A DNA stretch of 64,000 nucleotides from Paraspadella gotoi (taxonomy: Eukaryota > Animalia > Chaetognatha), in NCBI GenBank assembly GCA_051294375.1, contig CM119264.1:1807298-1871297 (forward strand), written 5' to 3'. Below the pieces are notes generated by a model. It did no database searches. It was not told the DNA's origin and saw only the letters and a list, made by a program, of their open reading frames with translations. Below, one piece after another: positions 7,374-62,709 of the stretch. A program made the translations under genes and the position numbers. Within the stretch, counting starts at the first letter, position 1, and every line of letters begins with the position of its first letter.

Positions 7374-10300
7374 TTAATTAAAAGCGCTTCGTCTACGGTC
7401 ATCGTACCTGTATGAATTAATAATAACGTGATGATCATTAATCGAATTATACAGTAATTCTCTTAAAACCGTAGATGGATTTTTTTATGATTTTAAATTT
7501 TATGAAATACTATCGTTAATACCCTACTGATAATAATTTCACTACTGCTTACCATTTTTGAATGCTTTTCGCTTTGGGTCGAAGATAACGCGTGTTCTTA
7601 ACCGCTTTCCAATCTGAATAAGGAAATATGCCTATCACCTACCACCTACCACCGACCACAGTTTTTCGGAAGTGGCTTATTTCTGTTTCTTAATAAAATT
7701 TAATTTTAGTCTTCTTTAGTCTGTAACTTTAATCCTTAATCTTCATCATTAACCCTATTCCTAATTCTTTAACCCTTATCATTAACCATCTTTAATTTAA
7801 ATTTTAATCTTAAAAAATAATCAACTTTTTGAACTTAGAAAGTAAAAAACTTTTTTGAATCATTTTTGGATAAAAAAAAACTCGACTCCATGAAGTAACA
7901 TATATATAAATATTTTTCTCCTCTGCCAAATTCTAAACCTCTCTTTGCTCGGACGAGAATGGTTTTTGGCCTCACCTTTTTAAACAATAACTTACCCTCC
8001 GACGTAGACAGGGATCTCCCAAAGATTTGAGGCGTCGTTTTTCTCTCTTGATTCTGATTTCCGATGAGTCGTTTGGAATCCATGGAGTAGATGGGGGGAA
8101 GGCGAGTTGGGGGGAGGTGATGCAGGGGGAAAACTGTTAAGGGGGGGGAGAAGGAATCAGGGTGGGGATAAGAGGGGGAGGGTCGGGGATTGGGGATTGT
8201 TAATTCTGTAGTATTGTATAAAATGTATAGCATAGGATAGAGAACGAGGGAAGAGAGAAAGGGAGGGAAAGGGACGGAAAGAGAGTGAAAGAGACGGAAA
8301 GAAAGAGACTTTGACCGAAAGAATGGTGGAAAGTAAGAGAGAGATAGAGACAGAGACAGTTTCTCACCATCATCATCCTCGTCTTCCACTTCCTCAGTCT
8401 CTCTCTTTGTTTCTTCATCTGAATAAAATTTTAAAAAATAAATAAAAGTCAAACGCGTAAACAAATGAACACCGAGAATTAAAATTATTTTATATCATTA
8501 AGTCTATCATAAAATCTCGTCACGTCACAATTAGGACTTAAATCTATCATTGATTGATGACAGTGCCAATTCTATTTGATCCACCGATCAATCTACTCAA
8601 ATGTCAGTCAGTCTGTTGAAAAGGCGCTCAGTGGACTGAAGACTATTAATAATATTATTAATATTATTAATTATTAATAATTTTCAGCAGCAACGGAACG
8701 GGTCCTGTGCTTTGAACCAGGTTTTTCCACCCCGCCGAGTCGGTTTACGATCGTTTTCAATGCTTCCCGATGGGTTGGTACCATTGGTGATCGATCCCCG
8801 GCATCTGAGGGTCATGAGCTGAAGGTACCGGTACCGGTTCACAACCAGAGGCTGCATGTCTCAAGGTGGGGGTGAACGTGGCGCAATGCGTCAGTCCATC
8901 AATTCCTCAGGCCATCTGTCCATCAGACNNNNNNNNNNNNNNNNNNNNNNNNNNNNNNNNNNNNNNNNNNNNNNNNNNNNNNNNNNNNNNNNNNNNNNNN
9001 NNNNNNNNNNNNNNNNNNNNNNNNNNNNNNNNNNNNNNNNNNNNNNNNNNNNNNNNNNNNNNNNNNNNNNNNNNNNNNNNNNNNNNNNNNNNNNNNNNNN
9101 NNNNNNNNNNNNNNNNNNNNNNNNNNNNNNNNNNNNNNNNNNNNNNNNNNNNNNNNNNNNNNNNNNNNNNNNNNNNNNNNNNNNNNNNNNNNNNNNNNNN
9201 NNNNNNNNNNNNNNNNNNNNNNNNNNNNNNNNNNNNNNNNNNNNNNNNNNNNNNNNNNNNNNNNNNNNNNNNNNNNNNNNNNNNNNNNNNNNNNNNNNNN
9301 NNNNNNNNNNNNNNNNNNNNNNNNNNNNNNNNNNNNNNNNNNNNNNNNNNNNNNNNNNNNNNNNNNNNNNNNNNNNNNNNNNNNNNNNNNNNNNNNNNNN
9401 NNNNNNNNNNNNNNNNNNNNNNNNNNNNNNNNNNNNNNNNNNNNNNNNNNNNNNNNNNNTCAGTCCGTCAATTCGTCAGTTCATCAATTCCTCAGTACGT
9501 CAGTCCGTCAGTCCATTTATTCCTCAGTCCGTCAGTCCGTCAGTCCGTTTATCCGTCCACTCTCCCCTACCCACCTTCCCCTTCCTCTTCTTTCTCTTCG
9601 ACTTCGTCAATGAAGATGGATTCAGTTGGCGCAATCGTCTTCAGCCAAAGAAGTTGCTTCATCGTCAGACCAGATTCGAATCCTGGAAAAAATGATATAT
9701 TGTTTAAAGTTTATTGTTTAATTAGTTATTTTAGTTAAGTTTGAGGTTTTTTTTTAAGCTAAGTTTTTTTTTTGTCACGTTTTAAGTTAAGTTTTTAAGT
9801 TTATTAGATTTAATGTGGACGAACGAACGAAACGAAACCTCAGTTGTGACCTTAAAACTCCCTCTCTGTCTTTCTCTCTGTCTCTCTCTCTCTATTTCTC
9901 ACTTACTATTGTCTATTAATTATTAATTAACTATTACAAATTAGCAGTCCATGTGCTTTGGATGAGGCTGTAGATTGTAGATTGTAGAAGTGTAACTTCA
10001 TGCTAGCACATGCGGGCTCAGTATATTCTCCTAACTATTCAGCGGCGACCGAGCTAAAATACCGGACCTTTAGATTGGAAGACGAATGACTTGCGTCCGG
10101 CTTCGATGGTGGCTGTTCATGAAGTAGTCTCATCGATTATGATTTGATTGATTGATTGATTAATTGTTCCTCCAACTAATTAAAGCATTTAAAGTGAAGA
10201 TGACTTTTCATATTTTATTTAGCCCCTTTTTTCCTGAGTGGAACAAGGTCCAGAGCTTTGAACGAGGCCGCTTCCAACAGGTAATGTACCGGGTTAGTAC

Positions 10301-27071: not shown

Positions 27072-27305
27072 TGAAGAGACAGTAATTATTGATAAGTGTT
27101 AATGACAGAACCGTTCAATATAAGCAGTCCCTGAGCTTCGGATCAGGCTGTAACACCATGTTACAGGCGGGTTAAGCGCCCCGTCTCTCTTAACTGCCAA
27201 ACGACCACCGGGCTAGAACCCCGGACCTTTGGGTTGGGAGGCGAATGACTTGCCTCCGGCACCAATGGCCACTGATGAACGGTTGGTGGATTTTAGTTCA
27301 CCATA
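27072..27305 (-). mobile_element. tRNA(Gly)-like SINE family A with twister-like core
   Basis: Close copy of 29834-30066(-) and 37046-37265(+). Has a 5' hairpin, a tRNA-like region with A/B boxes (ccggggttctagcccgg) and the core GA CGGG GCGC T TAA CCC GC..CCTGA TCCGAAGC TCAGG. Confidence 0.8.
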
Positions 27306-28111
27306 ACTTAATATATTAATCAATTTCGGCACTTGTTTTCAAGGAAGCCCCCTTGCTGCGGCTCCTAAAGCAGCGGATTCAAACACATGCACAAAAATTG
27401 TATCTTTTGCTACTTCCATCATTGCAACTGATTCCTCCATTGTTCAAATTATCGTCGTCGTTTCTGTCGATCCCGATCCTGACTCTAAGTCATCCAGCCA
27501 GAGAGAGAGTGAGAGAGATTCGCAAAGGGTAAAGGGCAAAGGGGCATCGATGATTGAAAAGGCCGGACGGGGATCAGTGGTGAGAATAGGCCAAGGGTAA
27601 GGAGAGATTGAATTTAGTTTTGAAAAGAAGTGAAATGGTCAATTGGGAAGAGAGAGGGAGAGAGAAAATAATTCATTTCTTAAAGTCTTAATTAATTTCT
27701 TAAGACTTAATGTACTTGTAACAGTTGAAAAGATTTTTGTATACTGAAATTTTTAACATTAATAAATAATTGAAGAAAAGAAAATAGAAAGTGAAAGAGA
27801 TACATTTGGTGATATGAGGGATAGCAAAGTAATTAGTAAAGTGAAAAGTTGGCTTTTCTAAATGAGAGGCTTGGACGATGAGGCCGGGTCATTGACGTGT
27901 TCAGAAGACAGTTCGACCGAGCATGTTAGTGCTGGATTGAGTAGACTTCTCTTTGGCCTGATACGCCGCCGGCTTCCCTCTTCTCGCCTTCTGGCGGGGT
28001 GGGTGGTGTCCATTCTTGCCACTTTTGGGAGGAGAGACATGCGCTTCATCCCCCTGCTTCGTACTCTCATATGCGAGAGTCCTGGGGGCGGCTGTCTGGT
28101 GGTCCTATCAC

Positions 28112-28340
28112 CACAGATGGATTAAAGCCGTTTCTTTCGCAGCGCCTCAGTGGCTCAGTAGACTAATGCACCATCCCAATGTGCGTCCCTGGTTCGAGCC
28201 CTGAGGTTGTCATGTAGAAAGTGGGATGGACCGGGTAAACCGCCTGTAGGCATGGGCCTACTGCCAGATCCAAAGCTCTGGACGACATGAACATGCTGTC
28301 TCGCTGTCGCCACGATGTGACACCGCTCCGGGTGTGGCGC
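28112..28340 (+). mobile_element. tRNA-derived SINE family B with twister-like core
   Basis: A-box gtggctcagtag and B-box ggttcgagcc (28192-28201), followed by the twister-like fold at 28210-28290. Confidence 0.7.
28210..28290 (+). ncRNA. Twister-like ribozyme (P5-type permutation), family B
   Basis: TCATGT(P5) agaaagtgg GA TGGA(T1') CCGG g TAA acc GC c t GTAGGC atgg GCCTAC(P3) t g CCAGA TCCA AA GC TCTGG(P4/L4) acg ACATGA(P5'). P2 is imperfect. Confidence 0.65.
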
Positions 28341-28816
28341 CCTGTAAAACCAGCCTCTTCATTATAATACTAAAATAATAATAATAATATTAAATTTTTT
28401 TTTTTTTTAGTTTATTTTCTCATATGCTTTTCGAGCAGAGTAAAATCTAGGATCGCTTCACAGGATATTTTTTAAAGGCTGATAAGTGGCAGGTTTTTGA
28501 AGTTTATGGGGTATAGTTTATGGTTTTAAATCGTCAGTGATAAAATTTAAAGAAGAATACTTATTACTTAACGATTTGGCATAAATTCACAGTACGTTTT
28601 AAAGATAATAATTATAAATTTGTCATGCCCAGACTTTTTGAGACACGACTCGTGATAAATTTTGCATCCCGCTGTCTCCTAAAAGCTTCGTCATAACTTT
28701 TTAGACAACACATCCAACTCCTCATTTGACATTTTTTTTCCTTCCTCATCTTGCAGTCCATCTGAATTTAAACCACGCGCTCCGTTCTGGCCGAAAGTGT
28801 AGGAGACGCTAGCCCC

Positions 28817-31447
28817 ATGGGCGTAATGTCTCACTCCAGCGACCAAGTGACGTCCTCCGTCAACACCAGCATTCCGCCGCCTCCGCCGCTCCACCCGGGT
28901 GTTGATTCAGGGGTCGCCGCTCCTTCAACCGGCCCCGGCCGACCCTGCGCCGCTTCACCGAAACTAAGCATCCCCTCCACTAAGAATTACCCCGGAATTT
29001 ATGGGTTCAGACTGACCTTGAAATCGACTGATCGAAGTAAAGAGACAAAATCTACTCGATGGACTTTCTCCAAGCCTTTGAACAGGATTTATTGCCGGAT
29101 GGGAGTTGCAGTGCCAATCACGGTGAGTCGTAACGTGATATTAAAACTTATTTTATTTCATGTCGCGCGTCGTTGTCTTGTTTAGAAAACGTCAAAATGG
29201 CAATGATTTTATTTTTATAGTTATCAACCCAATGTTACTTACTGTAAAAAACAAGTTGATTGGCCGAAAATCTTTATTCCTCAGATACTTTATAATCTCA
29301 AATCGCAATATGCAAACGAGATTACGATTTCTCTTGATTTAAATCTCGTTATCTCCAGTTCCGCTGTTCCTCTTCGCCGCCCCCCGATTGCGTCGTCCGC
29401 GCCATGGTCGTCTACACAGACTCTGAGCACGTGCAAGAGATCGTCGCCAGGTGCCCGACGCACGCGCAGACCAAAGACGACGCCTTTCCGCATCCCCTGC
29501 ACCTGCTGAGAGCCGACGACTCACGCGCCGTCTACTCAGACGTCGACCGTAACTTCGGACGCCACGCTGTTGACGTTCCGTGGCGTGAGCCGCAGTTGGG
29601 GGCGGAGGAAACTAGTTACATTTACAAGTTTATGTGTTTGAGGTGAGAATTTTTCAGGGAGGAACAGTTGCCATGGGGAAAAGATAAAAAAAGGGGGTAG
29701 AATTAGATTTTTGTTTTTACTACACATTTACCTTGTTAATTTAAGATTTAAGTTATTTACTAAAAACAATTTTATATGTTTTTATTTTTAAGTGGTATAA
29801 TTGCAGGACTTTCTATAGTTTTATTGTAGATACTGAAGAGACTATAATAATTGTTATGAATTAGTGACAGAACCGTTCAACATAAGCCGTCCCTGAGCTT
29901 CGGATCAGGCTGTAACACCGTGTTACAGGCGGGTGAAGCGCCCCGTCCCTCTGAATTGCTAGGCGACCACCGGGATATAACCCCGGACCTTTGGGTTGGG
30001 AGGCGAATGACTTGCCTCCTGCACCAATGGCCGCTGATGAACGGTTGGTGGATTTTAGTCCACCATAATACCAAAATATTGTTGTCTGCTTAGGTTTGTA
30101 AGCAATAAAACAATATTTTAGCGTTTAAAATTTATAATTAAGTTATTATTACTCTCGTTATTATATGAGCAATATTTCAAACGTAGTACTTGCGTCGGCG
30201 GCATCCATCGGCGCTCAACGGAAATCGTCTTCACTCTGGAATGCGTCGCTACCCACGAGACCCTGGCCCGCGCCACGGCCAGCTTCAGGGTGTGCTCTTG
30301 TCCCGGACGAGATCGTCGAAGAGACGAGGACATTCTGGCCAAAGCGTCGAACCCTTCGCAGTCGGAGGAGGCGGGCAAGCGGATCGACAACGGAATTTGC
30401 GGTACAGATTATAATCTTCTTGAAGGATCAACTATTTATTAACTAATTATTAAATAAAAAAAACGGATAAACCTTAAATTCTAAATTGAATTGATTTTAA
30501 CCTGCTTGAAGCAGTTACACTTTGCTTTCTCTAACCTGCTTGAAAAAACGCTTTATACGTATATGCTTTTAAAGGTTCATTGATTTTTGATTTACTAATA
30601 AAGTTGAAATGCTTAAAATTGCGTATTACGCACGTGAAATGGCAAACAATCTTAGACTTATGTATGGTGAAGACGAATCGGTTTCAAATATTTCCAAATG
30701 ACTGAGATTATTTCGAGTCACCAGAATATTAATAATTTAATTTATCATTTTCCGTTTATTTGAAAATTTATATCTTAATCATCATTAACATTCTCTTTTA
30801 CAGTCAAAACGAAAAAACGTCCTCTCTCTCTAGACGTGTTGGAGGATCGGTCTAAAAGAGTCTCCGCATCCCGCTCCTTCTCTCGCCCTCTTCCTTCTTC
30901 CACTCTACTTCCCTCCCTCCCGNNNNNNNNNNCTTACTCTCTCCACCCTCACCTCCCAACCCACCCTCCACCGCCTGGACTCTACACGGTCTCCACGCGT
31001 CACTGGAGCGACTACGAAATCCTCTTTCGCGTCAAGATGGCGTTGGAATTGGCGCGCGCCGCCACTGAGGAGACGAAAGGCGCCGTGATGGTAAAGACTG
31101 AGAGCGAAGTGAGTCATTCCGTGACGCCGCCGCTGCCGCCAACGAGTCGTCATTATTCTGCGCCGTCATCTTTGTCACATCCGTTTTTGACTCCGCCATC
31201 TACAACGACGACATCGACGCCTCCTTACAACGGAATCGGGTCTCCTTCATCTCTCGTCAGCGACAGTTTCCGCTCGGGATTCCCCACCGACTCCACGATG
31301 AACTTCAACGTGATGGAGCAACATCCTCCTCCGCAGCTGCAACAGCAGCAGCTGTCCTCCGGCGGCGGCATGTTTCACTATTTTACCCGAGAGCGTTGCA
31401 TATCGACGAGGATCCTAAATTCGATCCTTCGATCAACGTCCTCGTGA
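28817..31447 (+). CDS. TP53: p53-family transcription factor (DBD + NLS + tetramerisation domain; no SAM seen)
   Basis: Exons 28817-29122 (PSTKNYPGIYGFRL..TKSTRWTFSKPLNRIYC), 29359-29642 (VRAMVVY..IVARCPTH..HLLR..YKFMCL), 30187-30401 (STCVGGIHRR..FTLE..FRVCSCPGRDRR) and 30804-31447 (KTKKR; LYTVSTRHWSDYEILFRVKMALELA). Equivalents of Zn ligands C176/H179/C238/C242 and of R175/R248/R273/R280/R282 are intact. Orthology within the p53/p63/p73 family is not resolved. Confidence 0.93.
29834..30066 (-). mobile_element. tRNA(Gly)-like SINE family A in a p53 intron (cleavage-site TAA changed to TCA)
   Basis: Acceptor-like stem GCGGCCA/TGGTCGC, anticodon-like ttcgcctcccaa, T-arm ccggggttatatcccgg and P3 hairpin tgtaacac/tgttaca. 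Confidence 0.82.
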
Positions 31448-36857: not shown

Positions 36858-38374
36858 ATGATCTGGCAAATCCCGCTGGCGTTATTCGCCTTCGTCGCGG
36901 CCTCAGACGCTGAATTTCAGAAACCCAGTTTTTGTCGTGACCTCGATTGTCCCCCGTTTGACACCGTCAAGAAATTCGTAAGTAATTCAATGTATATTTT
37001 ACTGTATTTGAAAAAAATTTGAACTAGATTTTTAGGATGAAATGGTATGGTGGACTAAAATCCACCAGCCGTTCATCTGCGGCCATTGATGCGGTAGGCA
37101 AGTCATTCACCTCCCATCCCAAATGTCCGGTGGTCGCCTCGCAGTTTAGGGGGACGGGGCGCTTAACCTGCTTGTAACATGGTTTACAGCCTGATCCGAA
37201 GCTCAGGAACTGCTGATATTGAACGGTTCTGTCACTAACTCATAACAATTATCAATGTCTCTTCACCTGTAATGATATTGGTACAGCCAATATAAAAATA
37301 ATTCGTTGAATCAAGAAAAAAGCTATCTCTCTCTTACCAACTGACTGTTCTGTTCTTTTGACTATTCCACGTCACTGTTGCCATTCACAGGACGGATTCG
37401 AAGAGCGACGCTACGCCGCCAGCCGATGGGTGTCGACAAACATCTCCGTAATTTCGAATCCGAGCGAACACATCAAATTTAGCAAAGACATTTCCGAAGG
37501 ATTCTTTCGTCTTTTTAATTATATCCAAGGGGACAATGTTGACAGTACGTACCGATGTGAGATCATACGTTATCTAATTTCTTTAGTTGTCATGTCTCGT
37601 AAGTATTGATTTTTGTCTCATGACGCTGACTTTATTTACTAATAGTAACAGTGACAAGCTTAACGTTTTTGACCTGTGAATCTGTAATTTTGACCACTCT
37701 GCGAACTTAACATTTTCCCCATATTTTTAAGTGATAAACAATTATATTTTCTTTAAAGATATATGTATAATTAAATAATACAGATTAAATAGTAAAGCCT
37801 TTATAAATTAAAAAAATAGAAAAGAGTGAAACAAGTAATTTTGCAAATTTTCATAAATAGAATCATTATTTCTCTAATGACTAATTCTATTTTAAATCAT
37901 CAGAACGCAAAATCAACATGACGGCTCCCGTCCGGACTAAAGTGACCCCGGGTGAAGGCCCCGCCTGCGAGACAAACTTGACGATCAGCTTCATGGTTCC
38001 ATTGCACGAGAGGACCCCTCCGCAACCGTCGAAACGCAACGTCTTCCTGCGTAACGATCCAGGCAGCGTCCAATACGTCAAGTAAACGATTAATAGAATA
38101 TAATAAACTATATGTAACTAAACTAACTATATGTAAAGTCGTTAATTATTATCTGGGGCGGTTTTCTAACAGATCTTTCGGTGGGTTCGCTTCGGACGAG
38201 GAATGGGAACAGTGTGTTGTTCAGCTGGAGAATCAAGCCTCCTCCGCCGGCCTCGCCGTTCGAAGAGACTTTTATTACGTCGCCGGTTACGATTCACCGT
38301 TCACTCTGTTTAATCGTCACAACGAATGTTGGGTCACGGCCGCCCACCAATCTATCTTCTTGACCCAGAATTAA
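36858..38374 (+). CDS. Secreted SOUL/heme-binding protein (HEBP2-like), paralog 2
   Basis: Exons 36858-36977, 37391-37544, 37904-38081 and 38173-38374 in phase. Signal peptide, FCRDLDCPPF, FEERRY..WVST, GFFRLFNYIQGDN, INMTAPV, TISFMVP, YVKSFGGFA, AGYDSPFTLFNRHNECW. Confidence 0.92.
37046..37265 (+). mobile_element. tRNA(Gly)-like SINE family A in SOUL2 intron 1 (T-arm deleted, best twister core)
   Basis: Reverse-orientation homolog of 27072-27305 and 29834-30066. Confidence 0.82.
37141..37213 (+). ncRNA. Twister-like ribozyme (P5-type permutation), family A; predicted cleavage between T37164 and A37165
   Basis: GCAGTT(P5) tag GGG(P2') GA CGGG(T1') GCGC t TAA CCT(P2) GC t TGTAA catggt TTACA(P3) g CCTGA TCCG AA GC TCAGG(P4/L4) AACTGC(P5'). 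Confidence 0.72.
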
Positions 38375-38828: not shown

Positions 38829-41664
38829 TTAGTTTCTTTTCTCTGACGTCCTTAAGAGGAGAAAATCCTTCAATCTCGCCGGCAGAGGGATCGACTTAAG
38901 TTTATCCGGGAGATAACATCCGTGTCCAAGAGATTTCCTGATGGTCATGCGGCAAAAGTCTTGCAGCTTGCGAGGAGACGGTTTTCCGCAATTTAAGACG
39001 CTGCGACGAATTCGGGCGACGACTACCCCATGCTGCAACTGGGAGGTGTTGGCGTTGGCCGAGTTGGAGGAGCTGGAGAAAAAAAACTTAAAATTTATTA
39101 AAATTTTCTCTTTTTGGTCGGCCTTTCAGATATTTAAATATTTAACACAAAAAATATCATAACAAATAAACCAAATCGTAAATAATAAATATTTTTTTAA
39201 ATATTTTAAAAATAGCAATTTTGATAACCTAGTTTTCCTGCTGCTGTTGCGACTCCCGGTATTGATGATAAGCGAGTCTCGTATGGACGAGGCTCTAAAT
39301 AGAATATCAAAACTGTAAGGTTCAGATCTTCTCGGATCGCGAAAATTAGTGGGATTCGGAAACGCGCGGCAGATAACCTGTGATGCGAAAGTGATAATAA
39401 TAATAATTGCTAATAATAATTAATTAGCCCTGTCGGGCCATCAGAAATTGCTAGGCGGACTATGTTTCAAGTCCTTCCCAGCGGGGTATTGGGATTAGTT
39501 TTCAATTAGCAATAACCGCGCCTCAGTTAATACTTCACTGGCTACGGTATCGCCACTGCGCAAAGCTGGTGAATCAGCTTTCTTTCAAGACATGAATTTT
39601 CTTTCGAATTTTTTCCATTCAACGGAAATGAGATTAATTATTTTAGATAAATAAATGCTTGAACCGTATAATTACAATTTTCAAAAGAAAAACGATTTTA
39701 AATATAAATATTTGATGATAAACAAAGGGTATTTTGTTCAAACCCTAACGAACCACCAAGCTTTAGACCTTTGATCATAAAAAAACGCCTATACTAATAT
39801 ATGCAAATGAGATTATTCGATCTTGCTCACGAATGGAATATACTTGCCTGGAGCGGATTCCACCCCATTCTATTTCGCATTCTCATATTCGGATTATAAT
39901 CCAAAAGGATCTTGAGCACTTGAAGGTTATCTTCTCGACTTGCTTTGTGGACGGGTGAGTCCCCTTTATCGTTAACGGCGTCCACGCGGGCGCCGCGCGA
40001 GAGGAGAAGCTTAGCGGCGCGCGACTTAGGATTGGAGAATTTGGGTATTGGAAAAGAGAAATTGATAGACAGACCGACCACCGGAGTGCCCAACCTGTCC
40101 TCCAGAAGCCGCGCAATGAAGCGGCGTCTCTCCTTTGAAAGAACGCAGGTGGACGCGCCGCTCGATCTCGGTATCGTCTTCGGCTTCGGCAAAGAGGATC
40201 TTCACCAAACTCTCAAAGTGACATTTGGCCGCGTAGTGAATAGCGGTTTTTCCGGATAAGTCGGTAGCATCCGCCTTGGATGGAGTAGGAGAAATCTAGG
40301 CATCATTTCAGTTAAGATTCACTTAAGATATATTTCAATACAAAACTCTCTTGGACAGAATTGCAAAATAACAAACACCTGCACCACATTTATAGTACCC
40401 TCGCGCCGCAAATAATCGCGCTGCAAATAATCCGGCACTGTATTAAAAAAATTCGAATACCCTGGCGCAGCATTGAAAGACTAATGCCATAGCCTGGCGC
40501 CACATGTAAGAGAGGAAATATTTTTACGCCTCATAGAAATACTCGAAGAGGCGTCGTAATTAAACACAATTTCCCTCACACCGTAGTTAAAATAAAAAAA
40601 CAAATACCCTGGCGCCATATTTTAGTAGCAAAAGAACGGCGGGAAGGTTTTTCATTCGCGCGGCGAAGTGGAGTGGCAGCCAATTAGCGTGATTCTGGTT
40701 GAGGTCAAAACCAGAGGCTTTGAATTCTTTCAAGTGATCTTCAAGAGCGGAAATCGACTAGAAAGATTGAAAGGAGTGAAGTAAATTAAGTTTGTAGAGT
40801 CATCACATGCACTGTTTAATTAATGATTAAGAAAACGTCCAATTTGGGATCAAGTGCAGTATTTTTTTTCTTTTATTGAAAACCAATATTTCGATCTTAT
40901 TGATCATCGTTCAGGGTAAGAGTGAAATGACCCTCTTCACTCTCACCCTGAACGATGATCTGTCAAATAAGATCGAAATATTGGTTTTCAATAAAAGAAA
41001 AAAAATACTGCACTTGATCCCAAATTCGACGTTTTCTTAATCAGTGAAGTAAATTATTTTTTTAGTTTTAATTACCTAAATAACATGTCGTAAAAAAAGT
41101 ACAGGGAACCTTCAAAACTTTTTTTTACTTTTTAGTCGTCCGTTTCAAATATTTTTTTACCGTGAGGTTATCATTTCTACACCTGCTTTACTTGCCCGAT
41201 GCCCAACGTCCAACAACAGCTCCGACAAACATTGGAGCAGCTTAGGGTAACCAAATTCGGATCATAGACATTATTGTATCATATTGTATCAAAACTATAT
41301 TATATATTGCAGTAGTAGCAATCACAATTTCTCACAGAACGAAAGAAGATTAATCAAAATTTCAACCCTTGTCAACGAATTTTAAAGAAACACCGCTGCA
41401 TTAGACAATTTCCACCCCCCCCCCAAAAAAAAAAAATATTACCCTCGGATGAGTCCCTTGGTCGCCAGCTTGTCTCCGGTCAGTTGGATCAGTCGCAATA
41501 TCGCGTAGTAAAACGTTCGTCATCTCCATCTGATTTTGAATGGATTCCAAGACATGATACATTTTCGGATCTACTCTTGAGTTATCGTCATTACGATTAC
41601 AATTGCTATTTTGATTACGACTACTTCTATTCAGATCACGGTAAAATATCGATAGTTTAGACAT
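38829..41664 (-). CDS. Ankyrin repeat and SOCS box protein (ASB-like)
   Basis: Exons 41664-41443, 41240-41196, 40757-40608, 40274-40095, 40024-39848, 39377-39229 and 39072-38829. Ankyrin repeats LPLHFAA, GKTAIHYAA, GETPLHCAA, GDSPVHKAS, GWNPLQ. SOCS box PRKLQDFCRMTIRKSL...IPLPARLKDFLL. The model needs two GC donors. Confidence 0.88.
39425..39567 (-). ncRNA. RNU4: U4 spliceosomal snRNA, copy 1 (inside ASB intron, same strand)
   Basis: Sense AGCTTTGCGCAGTGGCGATACCGTAGCCAGTGAAG..TGAGGCGCGGTTATTGCTAATTGAAAACT..CCCAATACCCCGC, Sm site AATTTCTG and 3' hairpin; 143 nt. Confidence 0.95.
39801..39808. promoter_or_regulatory. Octamer (DSE-like) for U4 copy 1
   Basis: ATGCAAAT ~235 bp upstream of U4 +1. 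The 16-mer atatgcaaatgagatt is shared with the same position of copy 2. Confidence 0.7.
40789..41042. mobile_element. Fold-back insertion (~220-bp near-perfect palindrome) flanked by a 14-bp direct repeat
   Basis: Arms of ~105 bp (40824-~40926 vs ~40935-41043). agtgaagtaaatta occurs at 40775-40788 and 41043-41056. Confidence 0.75.
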
Positions 41665-49319: not shown

Positions 49320-52300
49320 ATCAGACTAAACGTTTTAACTAATGATTAATGAATAGTAACTTATTTAGATTCTTTTCAATCACTTGACGTTAAAATATCC
49401 TCACATAACTCTCAATAAAATCTCCTAACGAATCAGGCGTCAGGCGAACTGCACCTGGCTTTTCCTCTTCCTCTTCCACGCAGACCCTCTGGACGAGCGA
49501 CTTGGCGACTCGGCCGACGTCGTCGAAATCCTTTGCTATCACGACTCGATCTTCGGCGCCGGCGATGTCCACGAGTCCTGATCTTTTGACGCCGGTTCCG
49601 ATCCCAATCGCGTAGACGACGACGCCGTCTTTGGCCCAAAGGGACGCCGCTTTTTTGGTTTTGATCTCCTGGGTGACGCCGCTTGGATCCCCGTCCGTGA
49701 AGACGAAACAGAACTGAAACGGAGATGACATTCGAAGAGACAAGACGATGTAAAAGAAAACAGGCTTTACATTTAGAGAAACAGGGTTGATGTGAGAAGA
49801 AAACAGAAGAAACACATCAAATGAAGAACAGACTTTAAAGAATCTATTGCCATCAGAAGAAACTGACCAAATTCCTAAACAATGAAAAAAAAACATACCA
49901 GTGAAAAAAAGGTCGGATTTAAAACAATATTGGTTTTATCAATTTCATAGTGTTCCTGAACTAAAATATACTAACGGTAAAAACAAAAAAAATCATTTTC
50001 CTTAAACCACAAAAAAACAGAACATTAAAAATATCCAAAAAAACCTACAACCAAACCAATACCGGGCCTTATTTTCGTAAAGAGTCCCATTTCACATTAA
50101 ATTCTAAAATATATTTTTTTTAGGTTCAAATATTAGGATACCATCACAGATGAATGAAACTCGGAAACAGAGGAAAGGATTAAGGAAGAGGATTCCGGAA
50201 GAGGAAGAAGATTCTGGAACGATTTCGAACGGGATTTTGGAAGCCAAATCCAGAAAAGGAACAATAGTTTCCGGAAGAGGAAAAGAAGGTTCCAGAAGAG
50301 GAAGAGGAGGATTCCGGAAGAGGAATCTGGCTTCGTCTACTTGCCCATTATAAATAGCCTCTGTTTCTGCTTTGATTAGGTTTAAAATTAGGTCAAGGAT
50401 TAATGTTAGGGATTAGGTTAATGGATTAGGGTTAATGACTTAAATTTAGAGTTTTAAGTTGAAGATTAGGCAATAAGGTTTAGGGTTCAGGGTAATGATT
50501 AGGTTAAGTTTAGGGAATTAGGGATTAGGGTTACAGATTAGATTAAAAGTCTAGTAACAAATTATTTTTAAATAAGTAACTAAATTAAAAATGTTCAGGG
50601 GTAAAGGAACCGAAATGGGGCGTTTTGGGAAAAGAGAGCCACAGTACCATTATTATAATCGACCAATGGACCAATCGTATTCCTCACCCTCCCAGTGTCC
50701 TTGTCTTTTCTCTCTTTCACTTTGAAACGAACAAAGGCTTTTTCCAAAGCGTCGCCAGTCAGAGTTCCCCCAGGAACGTAGGAGCTTTTTCTGATTTCTT
50801 CTTGCAAAGAATCCTTGGTTAAGAATCTGAAGGGAGTTGGAGTGAGATTTTTAGGGGGGGGGTTGGGGTCAGTTGGAGTGAGATTTTTAGGGGGGGGGGT
50901 ATGGGTCAGTTCGAGTCGGAGTTCACAATTCGGGGGGAATTTTCGGTGGACATAGGCCGCCTTTGTCGCGGTTTGAGCTCTTTTTGAAATTTGAGTCTTT
51001 CGAGTTTATTTTGTCTTACTCGTGGCAGCAATGTATTATTTTAAATATATTTATCAATGATATCAATATCTAGTACTTTAAAGATATTTCAGTTCTCACT
51101 TGTCCAACGGAAATTCGTCGATCATTTTGGAGGAAAACTTGAAGAGTCCAACTCGCGCTTTGTCTTGACCGATCTCCAACTGGCTCACCACGGAATCTGC
51201 AATTTCCTGAATGACATTTTTATAAACCATTAAGATTTGAACATTACTCTCTTTTGATTAAATTTTAATTTGAAAAAATACCGACCTTCATCACGTGACG
51301 ATAACGCTCCTCGCCCACGCTGCCGGACGAGTCGACGATCAGTTGCAAGTCGATTTTGTGATTTGTCTTGCAGGATTTTCTCGCATCTCCTGGGACATTG
51401 ATGGAGGAGATGAAGATAAATGAAACAAATATTTAATTTTTTAATACTATATTTACCGTAACGAAAGAGAATTTGAGAGAAAACGACAAGAAAGAAAATC
51501 AATTTCATTTTCAATAATTAGATTATTGAAAATATAATCGGCAAATTTTGGAAGAAGAAAGCAAACATTTTAAAAGTTCGACTCTTTATATACAGTGAAA
51601 TTTAAAAAAAATAATTGTTTGCTAAGTAAATACACTTCACGTTTTGTCAGAAAAACCTTTTTTATTAGAAAAACCATGACATAAACTAACTCCGGGGGAT
51701 GCGGCGTCAAGCAGAGCTTTAACTTATTTTCTTTAAACAAACATTAAACATAAAATATAATTTACATATTTTAATCACGTCAATCTAATTTATATACATA
51801 ATTCTAGTTATCGGAAGATCAAAAGAGTTTTAAGGATTAAAAAGTTTTAGAAAAGTGAATAACCGCGAAGTTGCCACCAAAAAAAATTGATTTAGCGGAT
51901 CGGTGGGAAGCGTTTCCATTAAATTATATGGTTAAACTAAAACGTTTAATGAGACTTTTTTCAACATTCGTATGAATTATGACAACAGATTTGATTGATT
52001 TTTGTCTGAGATTTAAAGTTCTGTTTGTCCAACGATCGAAAAATCACCGCCCGAGTTGAAATGATTAATTCGACAAACAATTAAGTCGTTGTCTTCATTA
52101 TTTACCTAAACCGTTTTTGTCCGAATTGTGGAAATGGCTGAAGAGTCCAGAGTGCTATCCGCAACTTCTTTAACACCCTTTAGCAGCCATGGAACTGGTC
52201 TTGAGCTTGGAACCAGGCGTGAGGTTATTCCACGCCCCCAAGGCGGTTTACGGCCGTCGTTAAGATTTCCGTAGGGTAGGTACCATTAAGGATCGATCCC

Positions 52301-55300
52301 GATACCTTGTGGTCATGAATCGATGACTTTTCTCAATGAGCCACCGGGTCACAGCTGAAATTATATACAGGCGGGCGTGTACTTGTTGCAATACCGGACT
52401 ACAGAATTATAATCTTGTGGCAGCAAGACTTAAAGCTGCCTCACTGCTGTCCGTCCTTAGCCTCGTCTCAATGGCTGAGCAGGCTAAATCATCTCATTCC
52501 ATCCGTGCGTCCCGGGTTCAATCCCTGGGCATCCCGGTTCTGGCTTAAATGTGACGGTGCCGGTATAAACATGCCGGTGACAGGAGGCGGCCCCTACGCC
52601 AGTTGGTGAGATACCCCGCGCCCCGGGTATCATATCATATCATATCATATCCCGTTGCCATAATCTTTCTTTTTTTTTTATAAAGAGCAAGACCCAGTTA
52701 TATAATTGCAATCATTTCTTCCTCCCGCAATGCAATGCCTCCCATTGCAGGAAATCGACGCCCTCATGGTGCAGCGGATGAAGGATCTACCGGTTGCTGT
52801 GCAACGTGAGCACGAGAGTTGCATGTTGGACGTGACAGAATTGCAATGGCACGTCAACTATCGAGGCAGAGTGAGAACGAGGACAGAGAAGAAGGTTAAC
52901 AAGGCGAGGGAGTTCAACGCCAAGCTCAAGGCAGAGTTGGAACACATTAGCAAGCAGGTTTGATTGTTTGCTTGTTTTATTGTTTGAGATCGGGTTTCCA
53001 TTTCATTTATAGGAGCTATTTTTTTATTTAATTATCACTTACTTCATTCTTTTATATTTATGTATTCATTCATGTATTTTATCTCCTTCAGCCACAAATT
53101 TGACTTATTTATTTATTTATTAATTTATTCCAATTTTAAATCCAGGGCCCCTTAATCCAAGAGAAGCTCGGTCTCCTCGCCAACGCGACGATCAAAATCG
53201 GAAAGGGACAAGATTCGCTGGAGCGAAGTTTACTGGAGCAACAGGCTAATCTTGCGAGGAGCGAAGCGAGGGCTGCGGAGACGCGGAACAAGGCTCAGAT
53301 GGAGCGAGGGCTCATGGGAAAAGAGCAAAGAGGACTCGGGGAGGAAATGGGTCTGTGTTTATCATTATATGAGATGTAATAACATTAAATTAATGCATTC
53401 ACTTTACTTATTATGAATTCGAAAATGAATTCAATAATTAATACATTCCTTCATTTACATCCATTCATTCATGTATTAATTTATGTATTTTTTATAAAAT
53501 AATTAATTTAGTCAAACATCAATTCATTCATACATCAATTCAGTCGTTCATAAATTAACTAATTCATTAAGTGTTTAATTTATTTATTCAGTCCTTTTTC
53601 AATTCATTTAGCAATCTATTTATTTATTTATTTATCAATTAATTCATACATTAAACTCAGCCATTATTCCTACATTCCATTCATTCATTCATTCCATCCA
53701 TTCATTCGTTCATTTCATTCATTCTATTCATTCATTCATTCTATACATTCATTCATTCATTCATTCATTCCATTCAGCCCGCTACACTAAAGACCTTCTC
53801 CGCGCCAACGAGCTCCACGATCAGTTGAAGACAGAGTGGAGCTCCTTTGACGCGAAGATGCGTCGAGCGGAGGAGGCGGCTGAAGCGCTGGAGCTGAAGT
53901 CGGAGAGTGTAGCCGCGACTGAAGAGGAGCTGGAGAACGAGATCAGAGAACTGCAGATCAAGATCAGGGAACAGGTGAGGGCATCGGTAGATCGGGGAGC
54001 AAGTTCGGGAATAGGTGAGGGGATCAAGAAATCGGGGATCATGTTCAGTGAGCAAGTGAGGGGATCGATAGATCGGGGATCAAGTTCGGGGAATAGGTGA
54101 GGGGATCAAGAAATCGGGGATCAAGTTCAGGGAACAGTTGAGGGGATCGATATATTCGGTATCAAGTTCGGGGAACAGGTGAGGGGATCAAGAAATCAGG
54201 GATCAAGTTCAGGGAACAGGTGAGGGGATCGATATATCCGGTATCAAGTTCTGGGAACAGGTGAGGGGATCAAGAAATCGGGGATCAAGTTCAGGGAACA
54301 GGTGAGTGGATCGATATATCCGGTATCAAGTTCGGGGAACAGGTGAGAGGATCAAGAAATCGGGGATCAAGTTCAGGGAACAGGTGAGGGGATCAAGAGA
54401 ACAAGAGTTTGAAGTTTAGCATCAAGAAAAAGCTAATTGTATCGAGATATTCAGTGATCAGCCAAGTTACATACAGAATTTAACCAATCAAAAATCTCCT
54501 TTCCAACCAATCAATCAATCAATCAAGGAATTAGAAGTTGGCCGCGTCTCCGAAGCCAACGCCATCTCCACCCAAGAGAAAGAAGCTGAAGACGAATTGT
54601 GGGCGGAGACGTTGACGTCGCTGGCGACCGACTTGAAGGGTCGGACAAAGTCGCTCCAGGAAGTCATGTCGGGCATCAAAGAGAATAAAGGGAAGATCGA
54701 CGAAACGCTGGAGCGGATTCGCTCCTGTCACGGAGACAAGATGGAAAGGGTCAAGACGCAGGTGCTGGAGCGGAGGGGGTTGGGATAGTGGGGCGTGCTG
54801 GAGCTGATTAGCTCCTGTCATGGTGACAGGATGGAAAGGGTCAATCCCCCTCTAACAAAGACGCAGGTGGGAGTGCTGGAGCGGCAAGGGTGGCGATAGA
54901 GGTGGAGCGAATTGCTGGGGCGCTTTACAATGACAGGAGATTAATTTGTCTTACCTTTTCCGTTTGCTTCTTTTTTTTTTAAATTCGGGGGGAAAAACAA
55001 TACTTTAAAATAGATATTAATTAATTAACAAAAGAGACCAAAATATGAAACATTAACCAATAACCACAAACACTTTATTTAAATGTCTACGATTTAATTT
55101 CTATCTGAAAAAAGTACATATATTTGAGAACGAATATCAAAACTTTGATACTCAAGATTTTATCGTTAGACGAATTCACTCCTTACCATTTGTATATTGA
55201 AATTAACTTTGTTTTCCTCACCCGCCCTCAACCCAAAAAAAAGGAAAACCACAAACGGGAAATCGGGAAAAATGAGGAACAGATGGAGTTCGTGAAACTG

Positions 55301-58300: not shown

Positions 58301-60354
58301 TCACCATCCCTTTTTTTTTTATTTTTCTAATATTCCACCTTCCCATTTTACAATTTTCCACTTTCCCTTTTTTCCATTTTTCACTTTTCCACTTTCTTTT
58401 TTTCCATTTTTCGACTTTTCAGGCGGAGACGCGACTCGATTCCTCAGAGAAAATTCAATCTCAACTCAAAAAATTAAAAGAAGAAAACGAAAAAAGAAAA
58501 GAAGAAATGAAAAAAATTCACGAGTCTCACATGGAAGAGAGGAGAGCGGTGAAAGAGGGGTTGATAGAGAAGTAAGTGATTGATTGATCGATTCATGGAA
58601 GAGAGGAGATCGGTGAAAGAGGGGTTGATAGAGAAGTAAGTGATTGATTGATCGATTCATGGAAGAGGGGAGATCGGTGAAAGAGGGGTTGATAGAGAAG
58701 TAAGTGATTGATTGATCTATTCATCAAAGAGAGGAGATCGGTGAAAGAAGGGTTGATAGAGAAGTAAGTGATTGATTGTTGGTTTAATAGATTCTCATCG
58801 ACTTATTGATTGTTTTATGGCAACGGGAGGAAAGCCTGTGATACCCGGGGCGTGGGGTATCTCACCAACTAGCGTAGGGGCTGCGGACTGTCAGTGACCG
58901 CCTCCTGTCACTGGCATGTTTATACCGGCACCGTCACATTTAAGCCAGAACCGGGATACCCAGGGATTGAACCCAGGACGCACGGATGGAATGAGATGAT
59001 TTAGCCTGCTCAGCCATTGAGACGAGGCTGAGGACCGACAGCAGTGAGGCAGCTTTAAGTCTTGCTGCCACAGTTTCTAATTTATAAGACGAATGATTGA
59101 TTCAGATACATTGATTATTTAATGAATTATATTCTATAGATTGTTTTGCCTAATAATTGATTGGTTGATGATGCTTTATTGATTGATAAACCCTTTTAAT
59201 CAGACTGACGTCCGAGCGGATCCGCAACGCCGAGCTGGCCTCTAATTATCGGCGACTTCGCGCGGCGACTCTGCAGAAAAAGTCCGAGGCGATGGAAACG
59301 TTTGACCTGAAGAACAGATCCGAAAACGGACTGAAGGACATGAGAACGGTAGTGGGATATCGATCGATCGTTGATAGGAATCTAAGATTATTTTCGTTGT
59401 TGTCGTTGTTTAGTATTTTTTATTATTTGTTGTGAACTTAATTTTGTTCTTTTTTCCCAGAGCAACCAATTTCGGTTCTTTTATCCAGGAATTTAATTTT
59501 AAATTTAATATTTAGCTTAAACATGTTCTTAAATTTATAACCCTAATCCCTAACCCAATCCTAAACCGTAATTTCTAACCTTAACTCCTAACCTTAAACC
59601 TTAGTCACTAACCTTAATCCTTAATATAATCCCTAAACTTAATCATTATTATAATCCCTAACCTTAACTTATAACTTAATCTTTAACTTAAAAAATTAAA
59701 TGGTGTCTTTTGGGAAAATAAGGCCTAAATGTTAATGATAAAGACCAGGCTTTAAAACTAACTAACTTTCTTCCTTTCTTTCTTGACGATTTCCGGTTTT
59801 CCTTTTTTTTTCTTCTTTCTTTTTTTTTCTTTCTCCATATTTCTTTCTTTCTCCTTTCCAAATATTTTTCTCGCCATCTCTTCTTTCACTTTTCCCTCCG
59901 TTTTTTCTTTCTCATTTTTCATTCCTTTTTTTGCCTAACCTGCCTTTTTTCTCCCTTCATATTTTTCTCTTCTCCTTCTCTCATTGTTCTATCTTCTCTA
60001 ATCATAACTTCCCTTCCTTTTCCTCCCTTCCTTTTCCTCCCTTTCTTCCCCACACTCATCATTCCTATCATCCCTTTTTCATATTCTATTTTCCTTTCTT
60101 TATCCCTTCCTGCTTTTCCTTCTCTATACTTTCCCCCCCCCAACCAAAAACAGCTGCGCCTCCTCCAAGAGCGGATGTCTACTGCTCTGCGCGTCTACTT
60201 CAGGCTGCGCGGCGTCTTCGGCGCTGACGTCGTTGCCGAATTCACTGAAGAGTCGACGATCAGTTCCGAGAGAATGGAAGAGTTGAAGGCGGAGATGGGG
60301 GAGGCGCTGGGGAAGATTGATGCCTTCTTGGAGGTCTATGCCAAGACTGTTTGA
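42408..60354 (+). CDS. CCDC178: Coiled-coil domain-containing protein 178-like (~20 exons)
   Basis: Motifs recognised from CCDC178: IPCVKKAVSHLE (~43795), EVMQLLQRLERDR..KQER (45418-45513) spliced to EIDAL..DLPVAVQREHESCMLDVTELQWHV (52751-52957), long heptad exons 53146-59348, and last exon 60154-60354 LQERMSTALRVYFRLRGVF. The start codon and some 5' junctions are tentative. The exon at 56572-56694 needs a +1/-1 indel correction. Confidence 0.8.
43940..44082 (-). ncRNA. RNU4: U4 spliceosomal snRNA, copy 2 (antisense in CCDC178 intron)
   Basis: Identical to copy 1 apart from one loop substitution and a 3' hairpin that stays paired (GCCTT/AAGGC vs GCCC/GGGC). Confidence 0.95.
44308..44315. promoter_or_regulatory. 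Octamer (DSE-like) for U4 copy 2
   Basis: ATGCAAAT ~226 bp upstream of +1. Confidence 0.7.
45789..51508 (-). CDS. Nested secreted protein: signal peptide + VWA domain + 5 discoidin/F5-8 type C-like domains (~984 aa)
   Basis: Exons 51508-51457 (MKLIFFLVVFSQILF), 51389-51286 (IDLQLIVDSSGSVG), 51206-51100, 50826-50688 (GGTLTGDAL), 49713-49455 (FVFTDG..VYAIGIG), then phase-1/1 exons 48346-47891, 47824-47363, 47296-46835, 46768-46307 and 46240-45789 (ADSIW..AMRAF..W..LPQTVWYQF..SPTEFELVASND..W..YKCYGIKV..IQNLRMW). All phases match and the MIDAS is complete. Confidence 0.9.
46200..48310. repeat. 528-bp tandem repeat of exon (462 bp) + intron (66 bp)
   Basis: ORF-track ORFs recur every 528 bp (46269, 46797, 47325, 47853). 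The introns are nearly identical. Confidence 0.95.
48892..49010 (-). pseudogene. Relic sixth discoidin exon with internal deletions
   Basis: Sense fragments LPQK | FVKLNEEQTF | IQNIKMWEL..EKEKP followed by ccag|gt. Confidence 0.65.
50065..50640. mobile_element. MITE-like family with imperfect TIRs and internal degenerate TTAGGG-like repeats
   Basis: Ends ggccttattttcgtaaagagtcccatttc / gaaatggggcgttttgggaaaagagagcc. Related copies at ~59447-59725, ~62894-63302 and possibly ~7660-7830. Confidence 0.55.
52180..52358 (-). mobile_element. tRNA(Met)-like SINE family C, head-to-head with a family D copy
   Basis: Sense gtggctcattgag..ttcatgacc..gggatcgatcc..GACGGCCG TAA ACCGCC..CCTGG TTCC AA GC. 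Homologous to 8685-8857. Confidence 0.55.
52416..52663 (+). mobile_element. tRNA-derived SINE family D (twister P3'/L4 segment deleted)
   Basis: Inverted close copy of 58815-59072. A-box tggctgagcagg, B-box ggttcaatcc, internal (tatca)n expansion. Confidence 0.8.
53955..54400 (+). repeat. ~41-bp tandem repeat (~11 copies) seeded on an exon end and splice donor
   Basis: Unit gatcaagttcagggaacag|gtgaggggatcaagaaatcggg; the true donor is at 53974. Confidence 0.9.
55769..55970 (+). repeat. 32-bp tandem repeat (~6 copies) seeded on a splice donor
   Basis: Unit gaggtctgcag|gtcaggtcttgaggtcgggcc; the true donor is at 55781. Confidence 0.9.
56665..57400 (+). repeat. ~70-bp purine-rich tandem repeat (~10 copies) seeded on a splice donor
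   Basis: Unit gggagaaagaggaggagcttaatgag|gtggagggggagagggagaggagggaggaagtgaagggga. Confidence 0.9.
58530..58778 (+). repeat. 63-bp tandem repeat x4 spanning an exon end and donor
   Basis: Unit catggaagagaggagatcggtgaaagaggggttgatagagaa|gtaagtgattgattgatcgatt. Confidence 0.92.
58815..59072 (-). mobile_element. tRNA-derived SINE family D with twister-like core (58869-58948)
   Basis: Sense core CTGGC ttaa ATGT GA CGGT GCCGGT a TAA ACAT GC CAGTGAC aggaggcg GTCACTG acag TCCG CA GC ccct ac GCTAG. P4 is degenerate. Confidence 0.8.
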
Positions 60355-61434: not shown

Positions 61435-62709
61435 TCAAAGCTCCCCACTGGCCCTAAGCTCATTGACAGTCTCTTGTGCTTCATTGGCGATTTCTTGCGG
61501 AGTCTTGTTGGCTTCTCTCTCGACTTCTCCTGGTTCTTTGGGTTCAGACGCTTCTTTCGTCAGTTCCGCTTGAGTTTTGGCGGCGTCTGCGCCTGCGCAG
61601 TAAAGATAGAATTGGAGAATATGGCGGGAAACGAGCTCTTTTTTTCCCTAACTATAGTTATTATGAAATTGGTACAACCAATATAATAATTAACCATTCA
61701 TTCAATAAATAAGCTATCTTGCCCCTCACTTTGGTTTAAGGCCTCCATCACTCTTACAAGATAATGACATAGCAGGTCCCTGCAAACTTTAAATCAAGAC
61801 TCTCTCACGGTCTTGTTTATTCACTCGGAGAGTACGTTGGCTTCCCTATCAATGAAGTGGTATAATATTTCAAAGAATGTTTCAATTGTATTATGAAATT
61901 GGTACAACCAATATAAAAATTATCCATTCATTTAATAAATAAGCTATCTTGTCCCTGACTTTGGACAGGCTTTGGTGGTTTAAGGCCTCCATCACACTTA
62001 CAAGATAATAACATAGCAGGTTTCTGCAAGCTTTCAATCAAGACTCTCTCACAGTCTTATTTATTCACTCCCAGTGAACCTGGCTTTCCTATCAATGAAG
62101 TGGTATAATATTTCAAAGAATGTTTCAATTGTATAAATTCGTTAGATGGGGTAATCGTTTTTAAGCAAGAACTTAAAGGTTGTATTTGAAAAGGAGTGGA
62201 GATGCATTCACCTACTTAACCCCCGAGTGTGTTCAATTACTAATGCAGTTTGGCAATTTTACGTTTTACCCATCAAGACCACAGTGCAATCCGCAATTTT
62301 TAACCGAGCTCATTTAATAGTTCTGCTTGCCTGTCTCGCGCCAAATTAGCCATTTCCACTACAAGCGAGACTCACCTTGAAAAAAGGAAGTCGCCTTCTC
62401 GGCCGAAACCACGAAATCATCCAGAAGAGCCGCTTCAGTCTCCTTGAAAAATCGTGGACAATTTGTGAGTTTAGTATTGATAAATTGGTTAATGAAGTTA
62501 AGCCTTAACTTAAGCCTTAACTTAAGCTAACTAACATTGATTGAATTACATTAATTACGTGATTGATACCCTATTCATTCATTCATTCATTAAGTAATTT
62601 ATTCATTCATTCATTCATTCATTCATTCATTCATTCTCACCCTCGTTGTCTTAGCGACGATCGCCGCGACGAATACGACGGCGAAAACGAATCTCAGCGA
62701 CGAATTCAT
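61435..62709 (-). CDS. Small secreted Glu-rich protein (3' end uncertain)
   Basis: Exons 62709-62641 (MNSSLRFVFAVVFVAAIVAKTTR), 62442-62376 (ETEAALLDDFVVSAEKATSFFQ) and from 61592 (ADAAKTQAELTKEASEPKEPGEVEREANKTPQEIANEAQETVNELR) join in phase with GT-AG sites. Confidence 0.5.
61661..62133. repeat. ~230-bp tandem duplication of an interspersed repeat
   Basis: Units start ttatgaaattggtacaaccaatata at 61661 and 61891. Related fragments lie at ~10736-10840 and ~37275-37327. Confidence 0.85.

Follow-up and report, generated by a model that had tools for sequence, protein, structure and literature searches.

Twister ribozymes of type P5 (RF02684) follow the order P5-P2'-GA-T1'-P1-UAA-P2-T2-(P3)-P4-L4-P4'-P5' in descriptions of the twister permutations (PMC10085705, PMC6765202), with an 8-nt L4, two pseudoknots and a catalytic G and A. 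Natural twisters tolerate defects in P1, P2 and P4, as well as replacement of A by C at the trans A.A pair, whereas they do not tolerate changes to the catalytic A and G or to the pseudoknots; about 94% of the natural candidates cleaved in a large test (PMC11662667). P1 was dispensable in tested twisters (PMC5113685, PMC11662667). The presence of twisters in retroelements has already been published for the 5' ends of RTE elements (PMC8501958, PMC7761336).

Other ribozymes and other short elements provide further points of comparison. Plant LTR retrozymes carry a ribozyme in the LTR and generate 4-bp duplications, and their solo LTRs have been proposed to come directly from circular RNA templates (PMC4918200). 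The animal Helenus elements belong to the TRIMs; their LTRs are tRNA-like and often occur as solo LTRs, and their insertions are flanked by 4-bp duplications (PMC10886601). For animal retrozymes a link to Penelope-like elements has been described (bioRxiv 10.64898/2026.07.22.740005). In Penelope hammerheads stem III is a palindrome, and these ribozymes are thought to cleave as dimers (PMC6765202).

We have analyzed a 64,000-nt stretch of DNA, called the window below. It is animal DNA, with two U4 snRNA genes at 39427-39567 and 43943-44082 (both on the minus strand, and about 111 bits each in an Rfam scan) and exons matching the P53, SOUL, VWA and ankyrin families, and it holds 12 N gaps. An initial annotation had proposed that a twister-like fold lies in the middle of several tRNA-derived SINE families. 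The fold and its carrier have fared differently, and they are taken in turn.

Five repeat families with the order of a type-P5 twister

Self-BLAST of the window grouped the repeats into families A, B, C, D and E (Table 1). These five divergent families show the type-P5 order, with the same 8-nt L4, two pseudoknots and positions of the catalytic G and A, and the units of A to D are 220-290 bp in size. The order that the initial annotation gave for four elements (A1, B1, C1 and D1) is present in every one of them, as are the P5, P4 and P2 pairings that it quoted. T1 is also paired, and is best read as three Watson-Crick pairs (CCG/CGG, CCA/TGG, CGG/CCG and CCG/CGG in A1, B1, C1 and D1 respectively). 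Two further copies of family A placed at about 27.1 and 29.9 kb are real, and both lie on the minus strand. Family E and a decayed sixth family, I, had been missed.

Three features depart from the described type-P5 twister. P1 is a loop-less palindrome of 6-8 nt in every family, P3 is long in families A to D, and P2 in families A, B and E comprises three base pairs and a one-base bulge as read by eye, with four base pairs in C and D. T2 is generally GC/GC.

Table 1. Positions in the window of the elements and their twister-like motifs.
Feature	Position	Strand	Remarks
Family A, copy A1	37046..37265	+	Ends TA..CA; internal deletion in tRNA-like part; no target duplication
A1 twister-like motif	37141..37213	+	P5 from 37141, GA 37153-54, T1' 37155-57, P3, P4, 8-nt L4, P5'
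A1 palindromic P1	37158-63	+	U of UAA 37164; predicted cut 37164/37165
Family A, copy A2	27072..27305	-	4-bp target duplication AAGT; twister GA 27185, U 27174
Family A, copy A3	29834..30067	-	4-bp target duplication GTAT; A box 30026; UAA mutated to UCA
Family A, copy A4, decayed	9942..10166 (approximate limits)	-	Own covariance model E 1.7
Family B, copy B1	28070..28361	+	5' end inferred, 3' end family A-like; A box 28151, B box 28191
B1 twister-like motif	28210..28290	+	GA 28225, P1 28230-35, U 28236
Family C, copy C1	33040..33291	-	Ends TG..TA; termini related to D; duplication 2/4 letters
C1 twister	33092-33172	-	GA 33159, 8-nt P1, U 33146
Family D, copy D1	58816..59072	-	Ends TG..TA; 4-bp duplication AAAC; A box 59016, B box 58974
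D1 twister	58869-58948	-	GA 58935, U 58922
Family D, copy D2	52416..52662	+	4-bp duplication ATCT; twister internally deleted over P3'-P4-L4
Family E	61659..62134	-	Head-to-tail pair, units ~230-245 bp, no recognisable tRNA part
Family E, intact twister (E1)	61946-62006	-	GA 61993, U 61982, T2 changed to AC/GU
Family E, deleted twister	61715-61762	-	
Family E, fragments	37262-37328, 43635-43690, 4763-4847, 10758-10845		Variable ends
Family I, copy I2, decayed	52160..52400	-	A and B box, then palindrome CGGCCG before TAA, 8-nt L4; read by eye
Family I, sister copy	8660-8900	-	Palindrome CGATCG before TAA
Family I, sister copy	11760-11860	+	

Some neighboring features deserve mention. A fragment of family E lies immediately against the 3' end of A1, in opposite orientation, and D2 and I2 lie head to head. 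The p53-family DNA-binding exon or exons (PF00870) at 28772-29642 on the plus strand have B1 just upstream and A3 just downstream, and one contig of run X9, which is possibly an RNA run and whose contigs also span the elements, links 28424-29121 to 29358-29642 as if spliced. Moderate repetition is also seen at 28010-28069, upstream of B1. A repeated stretch at 27848-27900 (plus strand) runs on in other contigs, with loose ends at 27900, into A-box-like sequence, and probably represents the 5' portion of a further family with a tRNA promoter. Elsewhere, 45895-48320 (minus strand) holds about 4.6 tandem units of 528 bp; each unit is an open frame that weakly matches F5/8 type C (discoidin). A Rho-GTPase-like exon in the list of open reading frames has a near-duplicate 2.3 kb away beside N gaps (375-505/2658-2804 and 5-191/2275-2497); the pair may be an assembly duplication.

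Two indel-rich copies of a further element, at 13934-14236 and 22248-22583 and read on the minus strand, start with a TGTGG hairpin like C and D. They contain a P4-like stem of 5 bp, perfectly paired and capped by an L4-like loop of 8 nt, and GA/T1' lies outside the P5 position. This is possibly a seventh decayed family. Its reading as a P1 twister is unsupported, and a type-P1 descriptor found nothing in the window. The two copies, like the pair at 12788-12948 and 18216-18398, may be assembly duplicates near N gaps.

Evidence for the twister fold

We searched the window with a strict descriptor comprising GA, a 3-bp Watson-Crick T1, UAA, P2, a 2-bp T2, an 8-nt L4, P4 and P5. It matched five times, at A1, A2, B1, C1 and E1, compared with a mean of 0.12 and a maximum of 2 in 400 local dinucleotide shuffles of the window; as the descriptor was composed after the elements were known, this significance is somewhat overstated. 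The descriptor does not demand a palindrome, which therefore provides an independent check of the fold. A self-complementary P1 core is present in all five real matches but in only one of the 49 shuffle matches.

Base pairing was examined in a MAFFT alignment of seven copies, three of which belong to family A, with P5 and P2 omitted as they are out of register. For the nine pairs of T1, T2 and P4, 95.2% of cells are paired, and seven pairs change on both sides. None of 500 column shuffles, and no slid register, approached the pairing observed. Both pseudoknots are paired in 100% of cells, with change on both sides in two of the three T1 pairs and one of the two T2 pairs.

A different view of the families comes from public-run contigs aligned to the window, using four runs over 27000-30150 (families A and B) and three over 58796-59100 (family D). 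The families are very abundant, with a summed contig depth thousands of times that of unique flank or single-copy sequence, although this is not a copy number. Individual copies carry mismatches, as had been noted: P4 of D1 has only two of its four pairs formed and A3 has TCA for TAA. Both are restored by the majority letters of the contigs, as are most mismatches of the A, B and D copies in the window; these letters are unlinked column majorities and, for the 27000-30150 set, rest on 40 of the 87 rows listed. In family D the majority letters re-form both broken P4 pairs of D1 (58889 and 58890) and a P5 pair (58871) at >99% of summed depth in all three runs. At 28239, 28284, 27186, 29935 and 29956 they restore the fold at 92-100% in all four runs. 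In B1 the first two of these mend P2 and extend P5 to 8 bp, respectively. In family A they mend P2 (27186), UAA (29935) and P5 (29956 and 29888), with restoration at 29888 being weaker at 53-77%.

All five families retain the catalytic G of GA, the two A nucleotides of UAA and both pseudoknots, with restoration by the majority letters. Family D keeps a C at position 5 of L4. The tolerated change at the trans A.A pair likely covers this C, where we infer that the tolerated A corresponds to that of L4. The twister-type fold of families A to E is real; catalysis is predicted, at U^A. From the sequences it is very probable that active families contain a functional twister. The proposal of a twister-like fold in several retroelement families with a tRNA promoter is supported by the anatomy, the compensatory changes across families and the majority letters.

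Standard models perform less well. The Rfam twister models, which the initial annotation had suggested as a check, gave no match for A1, B1, C1 or D1 at E<=10. Twister-P5 finds family E unprompted, at 25.6 bits and below the cut-off of 37.6 bits, with a P1 loop of zero length. The failure with the other families may be explained by the model, which has 58 positions and no P3 in its alignment to family E. No hammerhead family was found in the Rfam scan of the window. Minimum-energy folding recovers P5 in all five cases but not the full set of stems, with z-scores between -1.6 and +0.2; the pseudoknots lie outside the folding model. A covariance model of our own found its seven training copies together with D2 and the second unit of family E, and found I1 and A4 only at E 1-2. 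A soft scorer placed seven element copies at 32-36, but a score of 32 was also attained four times among 14 shuffled windows, and the score of 27 for family I is within the shuffle noise. A loose descriptor with 11 matches, against 1-7 in 20 shuffles, was too noisy to use. A pattern scan for relatives gave 10 loci in metagenomes and 3, 4 and 2 loci in viral contigs, which on inspection were without P4/P5 and chance-like. The motifs of families A or D had no matches in the viral and prokaryote-genome scans.

The retained catalytic residues bear on the possibility that these RNAs no longer cleave, and are twister-derived structures kept as a dimerization or packaging signal in which the palindrome acts as a kissing site. 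The failure of Rfam to find the four named copies, the lack of a P1 stem, the bulged P2 of families A, B and E, the C at position 5 of L4 in family D and the weak folding z-scores would all be consistent with that. Yet the G of GA, the two A of UAA and the pseudoknots are just those features kept in the five families and restored in the majority letters, and stem defects of this kind are tolerated by natural twisters, most of which cleaved when tested (PMC11662667). We consider loss of cleavage improbable.

The carrier elements and their mobility

The internal Pol III A and B boxes are clear in families B and D and divergent in A and C, and the tRNA-like parts align across families. ARAGORN found no tRNA genes in the window, and the heads of the elements are tRNA-like rather than tRNAs. 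The tRNA-like part begins 40-56 nt inside the element, with the A box located 41 nt from the 5' end in A3, 50 nt in C1 and 56 nt in D1 and D2, and is preceded by a small hairpin. Family A has sharp ends at 27072 and 30067, supported by 100 and 99 contigs of run X1, and the ends of A2 coincide with loose ends of contigs. Family D has sharp ends at 58815/58816 and 59072 (27/18 and 39 contigs of run X3). The elements stop at a constant 3' position and carry neither an A-rich nor a repeat tail. Perfect 4-bp target duplications flank four of the six copies for which both ends were placed, i.e. A2, A3, D1 and D2 but not A1 and C1; B1 lies outside this count as its 5' end is not fixed. The termini are TA..CA in family A and TG..TA in C and D, and so differ from the canonical TG..CA. 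Among plant Copia LTRs, both TACA and TGTA are known as non-canonical termini (PMC9804982).

Next to family D, the flank consensus favors 4-mers resembling ATAT/GTAC. In an 8-contig consensus of run X1 and in one contig of run X9, D follows a common sequence whose last part, 3 nt upstream of the TG, is a G-run purine tract; the consensus of run X3 shares only the first four letters of the tract. The sequence upstream of D in the contigs has no match within the window. Two sharp ends, the lack of a tail and 4-bp duplications are marks of integrase-type insertion. An integrase/LTR route is reasonably probable for families A to D.

These ends bear directly on the claim that the elements are SINEs with the ribozyme as a central domain, i.e. 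tRNA-headed elements mobilized by a LINE through target-primed reverse transcription. The A and B boxes of B and D, the alignment of the tRNA-like parts across families, the SINE-like size and abundance, and the lack of a visible internal region are all in keeping with a SINE. But as the tRNA-like part lies well inside the element, a solo Pol III transcript could not regenerate the 5' end. Moreover the fixed, tailless 3' ends and the 4-bp duplications do not conform, and a cut in mid-element would part the promoter from the tail. The end structure largely refutes this reading, which we now regard as very unlikely.

Fixed ends and 4-bp duplications (in D; C1 has two of four letters) could also belong to MITE-like non-autonomous DNA transposons in which a tRNA-SINE and a ribozyme were captured as passengers. 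Families C and D have imperfect terminal inverted repeats of 9 bp, as this would lead one to expect. Family A has none, however, and the compensatory changes that keep the RNA paired in five or six families imply that an RNA intermediate has been under selection. A DNA transposon is therefore extremely unlikely.

The palindromic P1, from which the initial annotation drew no consequence, suggests how the RNA might act. For the P1 strands the self-duplex has an energy of -8.1 to -11.0 kcal/mol, whereas the best forced hairpin is at +2.7 to +6.0 kcal/mol in all six cases. The intramolecular P1 stem-loop of the type-P5 twister is thus unfavorable in every one. Unable to close as a hairpin, P1 would form between two copies. 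The inner four nucleotides of the palindrome vary with family (GCGC, CCGG, CUAG, CCGG and GGCC, with GAUC in one copy of family I), and that six families have kept palindromes of differing sequence argues for selection of pairing between copies. Equally, given that P1 is dispensable in tested twisters, a monomer might cleave, and the palindrome could have some other function. On the strength of the palindrome and the calculated duplex energies, we think it fairly probable that P1 formation is dimer-dependent.

Our preferred explanation, which we hold at about even confidence, is that families A to D are solo LTRs of a gene-less, Pol III-transcribed LTR retroelement resembling Helenus/TRIMp3 that contains a twister, with cutting as a dimer. 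Pol III would start in the 5' LTR of a source copy with two LTRs and read through to the 3' LTR. There is no T4 run inside A, B or D, so that Pol III would indeed read through. Two twisters would then be present in one RNA, and their palindromic P1 strands would pair with each other. The paired twisters would cut out a unit RNA able to be circularized, and a Gypsy-type reverse transcriptase and integrase acting in trans would copy it, mostly into solo LTRs. The same outcome has been proposed for plant LTR retrozymes. Within the window there is no two-LTR copy and no primer-binding site (PBS). The contig rows listed contain no PBS either, and no end-to-start joint occurs among the contig joints listed, 15 of 150 in the A/B region and 15 of 21 for D, a weak search because contigs break at such branch points.

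The main competitor retains the ribozyme and exchanges the carrier. The elements would be Penelope-type (Naiad) retrozymes that are non-autonomous and have a Pol III promoter derived from a tRNA, the twister counterpart of Sm-alpha; dimeric twisters would release monomers from tandem source arrays, and a Penelope-like reverse transcriptase/endonuclease would reinsert them. Family E, with its head-to-tail pair, scattered partial copies, variable ends and absence of a tRNA part, looks much like this, and loop-less palindromic stems acting as dimers are known from Penelope hammerheads (PMC6765202). Naiads, which are without canonical hammerheads, favor (TA)n targets and have a 30-40 bp extension (PMC8557442), resembling the ATAT bias and the 40-56 nt leader described above. 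Families A and D behave differently: they have two sharp ends and uniform 4-bp duplications instead of 5' truncation and partial tandems, and no full head-to-tail joint was found for D among the 15 of 21 joints listed. Nor is there a long open reading frame near family E, the longest listed being 120 aa. We judge this origin to be unlikely. Nevertheless family E may be of Penelope type rather than LTR type, so that the two routes may coexist here, with A to D taking the LTR route.

The LTR reading can be extended to a whole superfamily of Pol III-driven LTR retrozymes in animals. Its twister would act solely as a dimer, so that the RNA is cut only in the full LTR-to-LTR transcript, and Gypsy enzymes would copy its circular RNA mainly into solo LTRs that mimic SINEs. 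In this complete form the proposal is possible but doubtful.

Comparison with known systems

Like the Helenus/TRIMp3 elements, those described here have A and B boxes tens of bases inside the unit, 4-bp duplications, solo units and, in a few contigs next to D, a G-run purine tract upstream (PMC10886601). The Helenus/TRIMp3 LTRs examined differ in ending shortly past the B box and in their TG..CA termini, and the available text of that paper mentions no ribozyme. Their two-LTR form is not seen for the elements of the window. Four L4 motifs gave three matches in the available Helenus supplement, all in internal portions, where line breaks may hide more. Plant LTR retrozymes similarly place a ribozyme in a short terminal repeat and have 4-bp duplications, many solo units and no coding sequence (PMC4918200). 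Here, however, the host is an animal, the ribozyme is a twister and not a type III hammerhead, and there is an internal tRNA-like promoter. If our interpretation is correct, the range of LTR retrozymes would come to include animals as well as plants, the animal forms having a Pol III promoter.

In the dimeric hammerheads of Penelope elements and animal non-LTR retrozymes one stem is likewise a palindrome that pairs two copies (PMC6765202, PMC7229834), and Schistosoma Sm-alpha likewise joins a tRNA-type promoter to a ribozyme (PMC6765202, PMC7229834). They differ in the class of ribozyme, and families A to D have fixed ends and 4-bp duplications in place of tandem arrays, with only E in tandem. 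A natural dimer-dependent twister, if confirmed, would parallel the dimeric hammerheads in an unrelated fold. The Perere-3 RTE twister T-variants also place a twister with a non-standard P1 in a retroelement (PMC8501958). Those are terminal: they occupy the 5' end of an autonomous LINE, where the DNA that flanks it completes P1 (PMC8501958), whereas the twisters of the window are internal, P5-permuted and carried by non-coding elements. If they act as proposed, twisters would have a second role in retroelements of eukaryotes, in addition to processing the 5' ends of RTE LINEs.

Given that Rfam misses these motifs, and that annotators would call the elements SINEs, many such ribozymes may be hidden in invertebrate genomes. 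In the open literature, to which our search was confined and which included PMC11662667, PMC10085705, PMC5680766 and PMC7229834, we found no twister with a palindromic loop-less P1, and none in an LTR or tRNA-promoter element. Every part has a precedent in the systems described above, and it is their combination that appears to be new.
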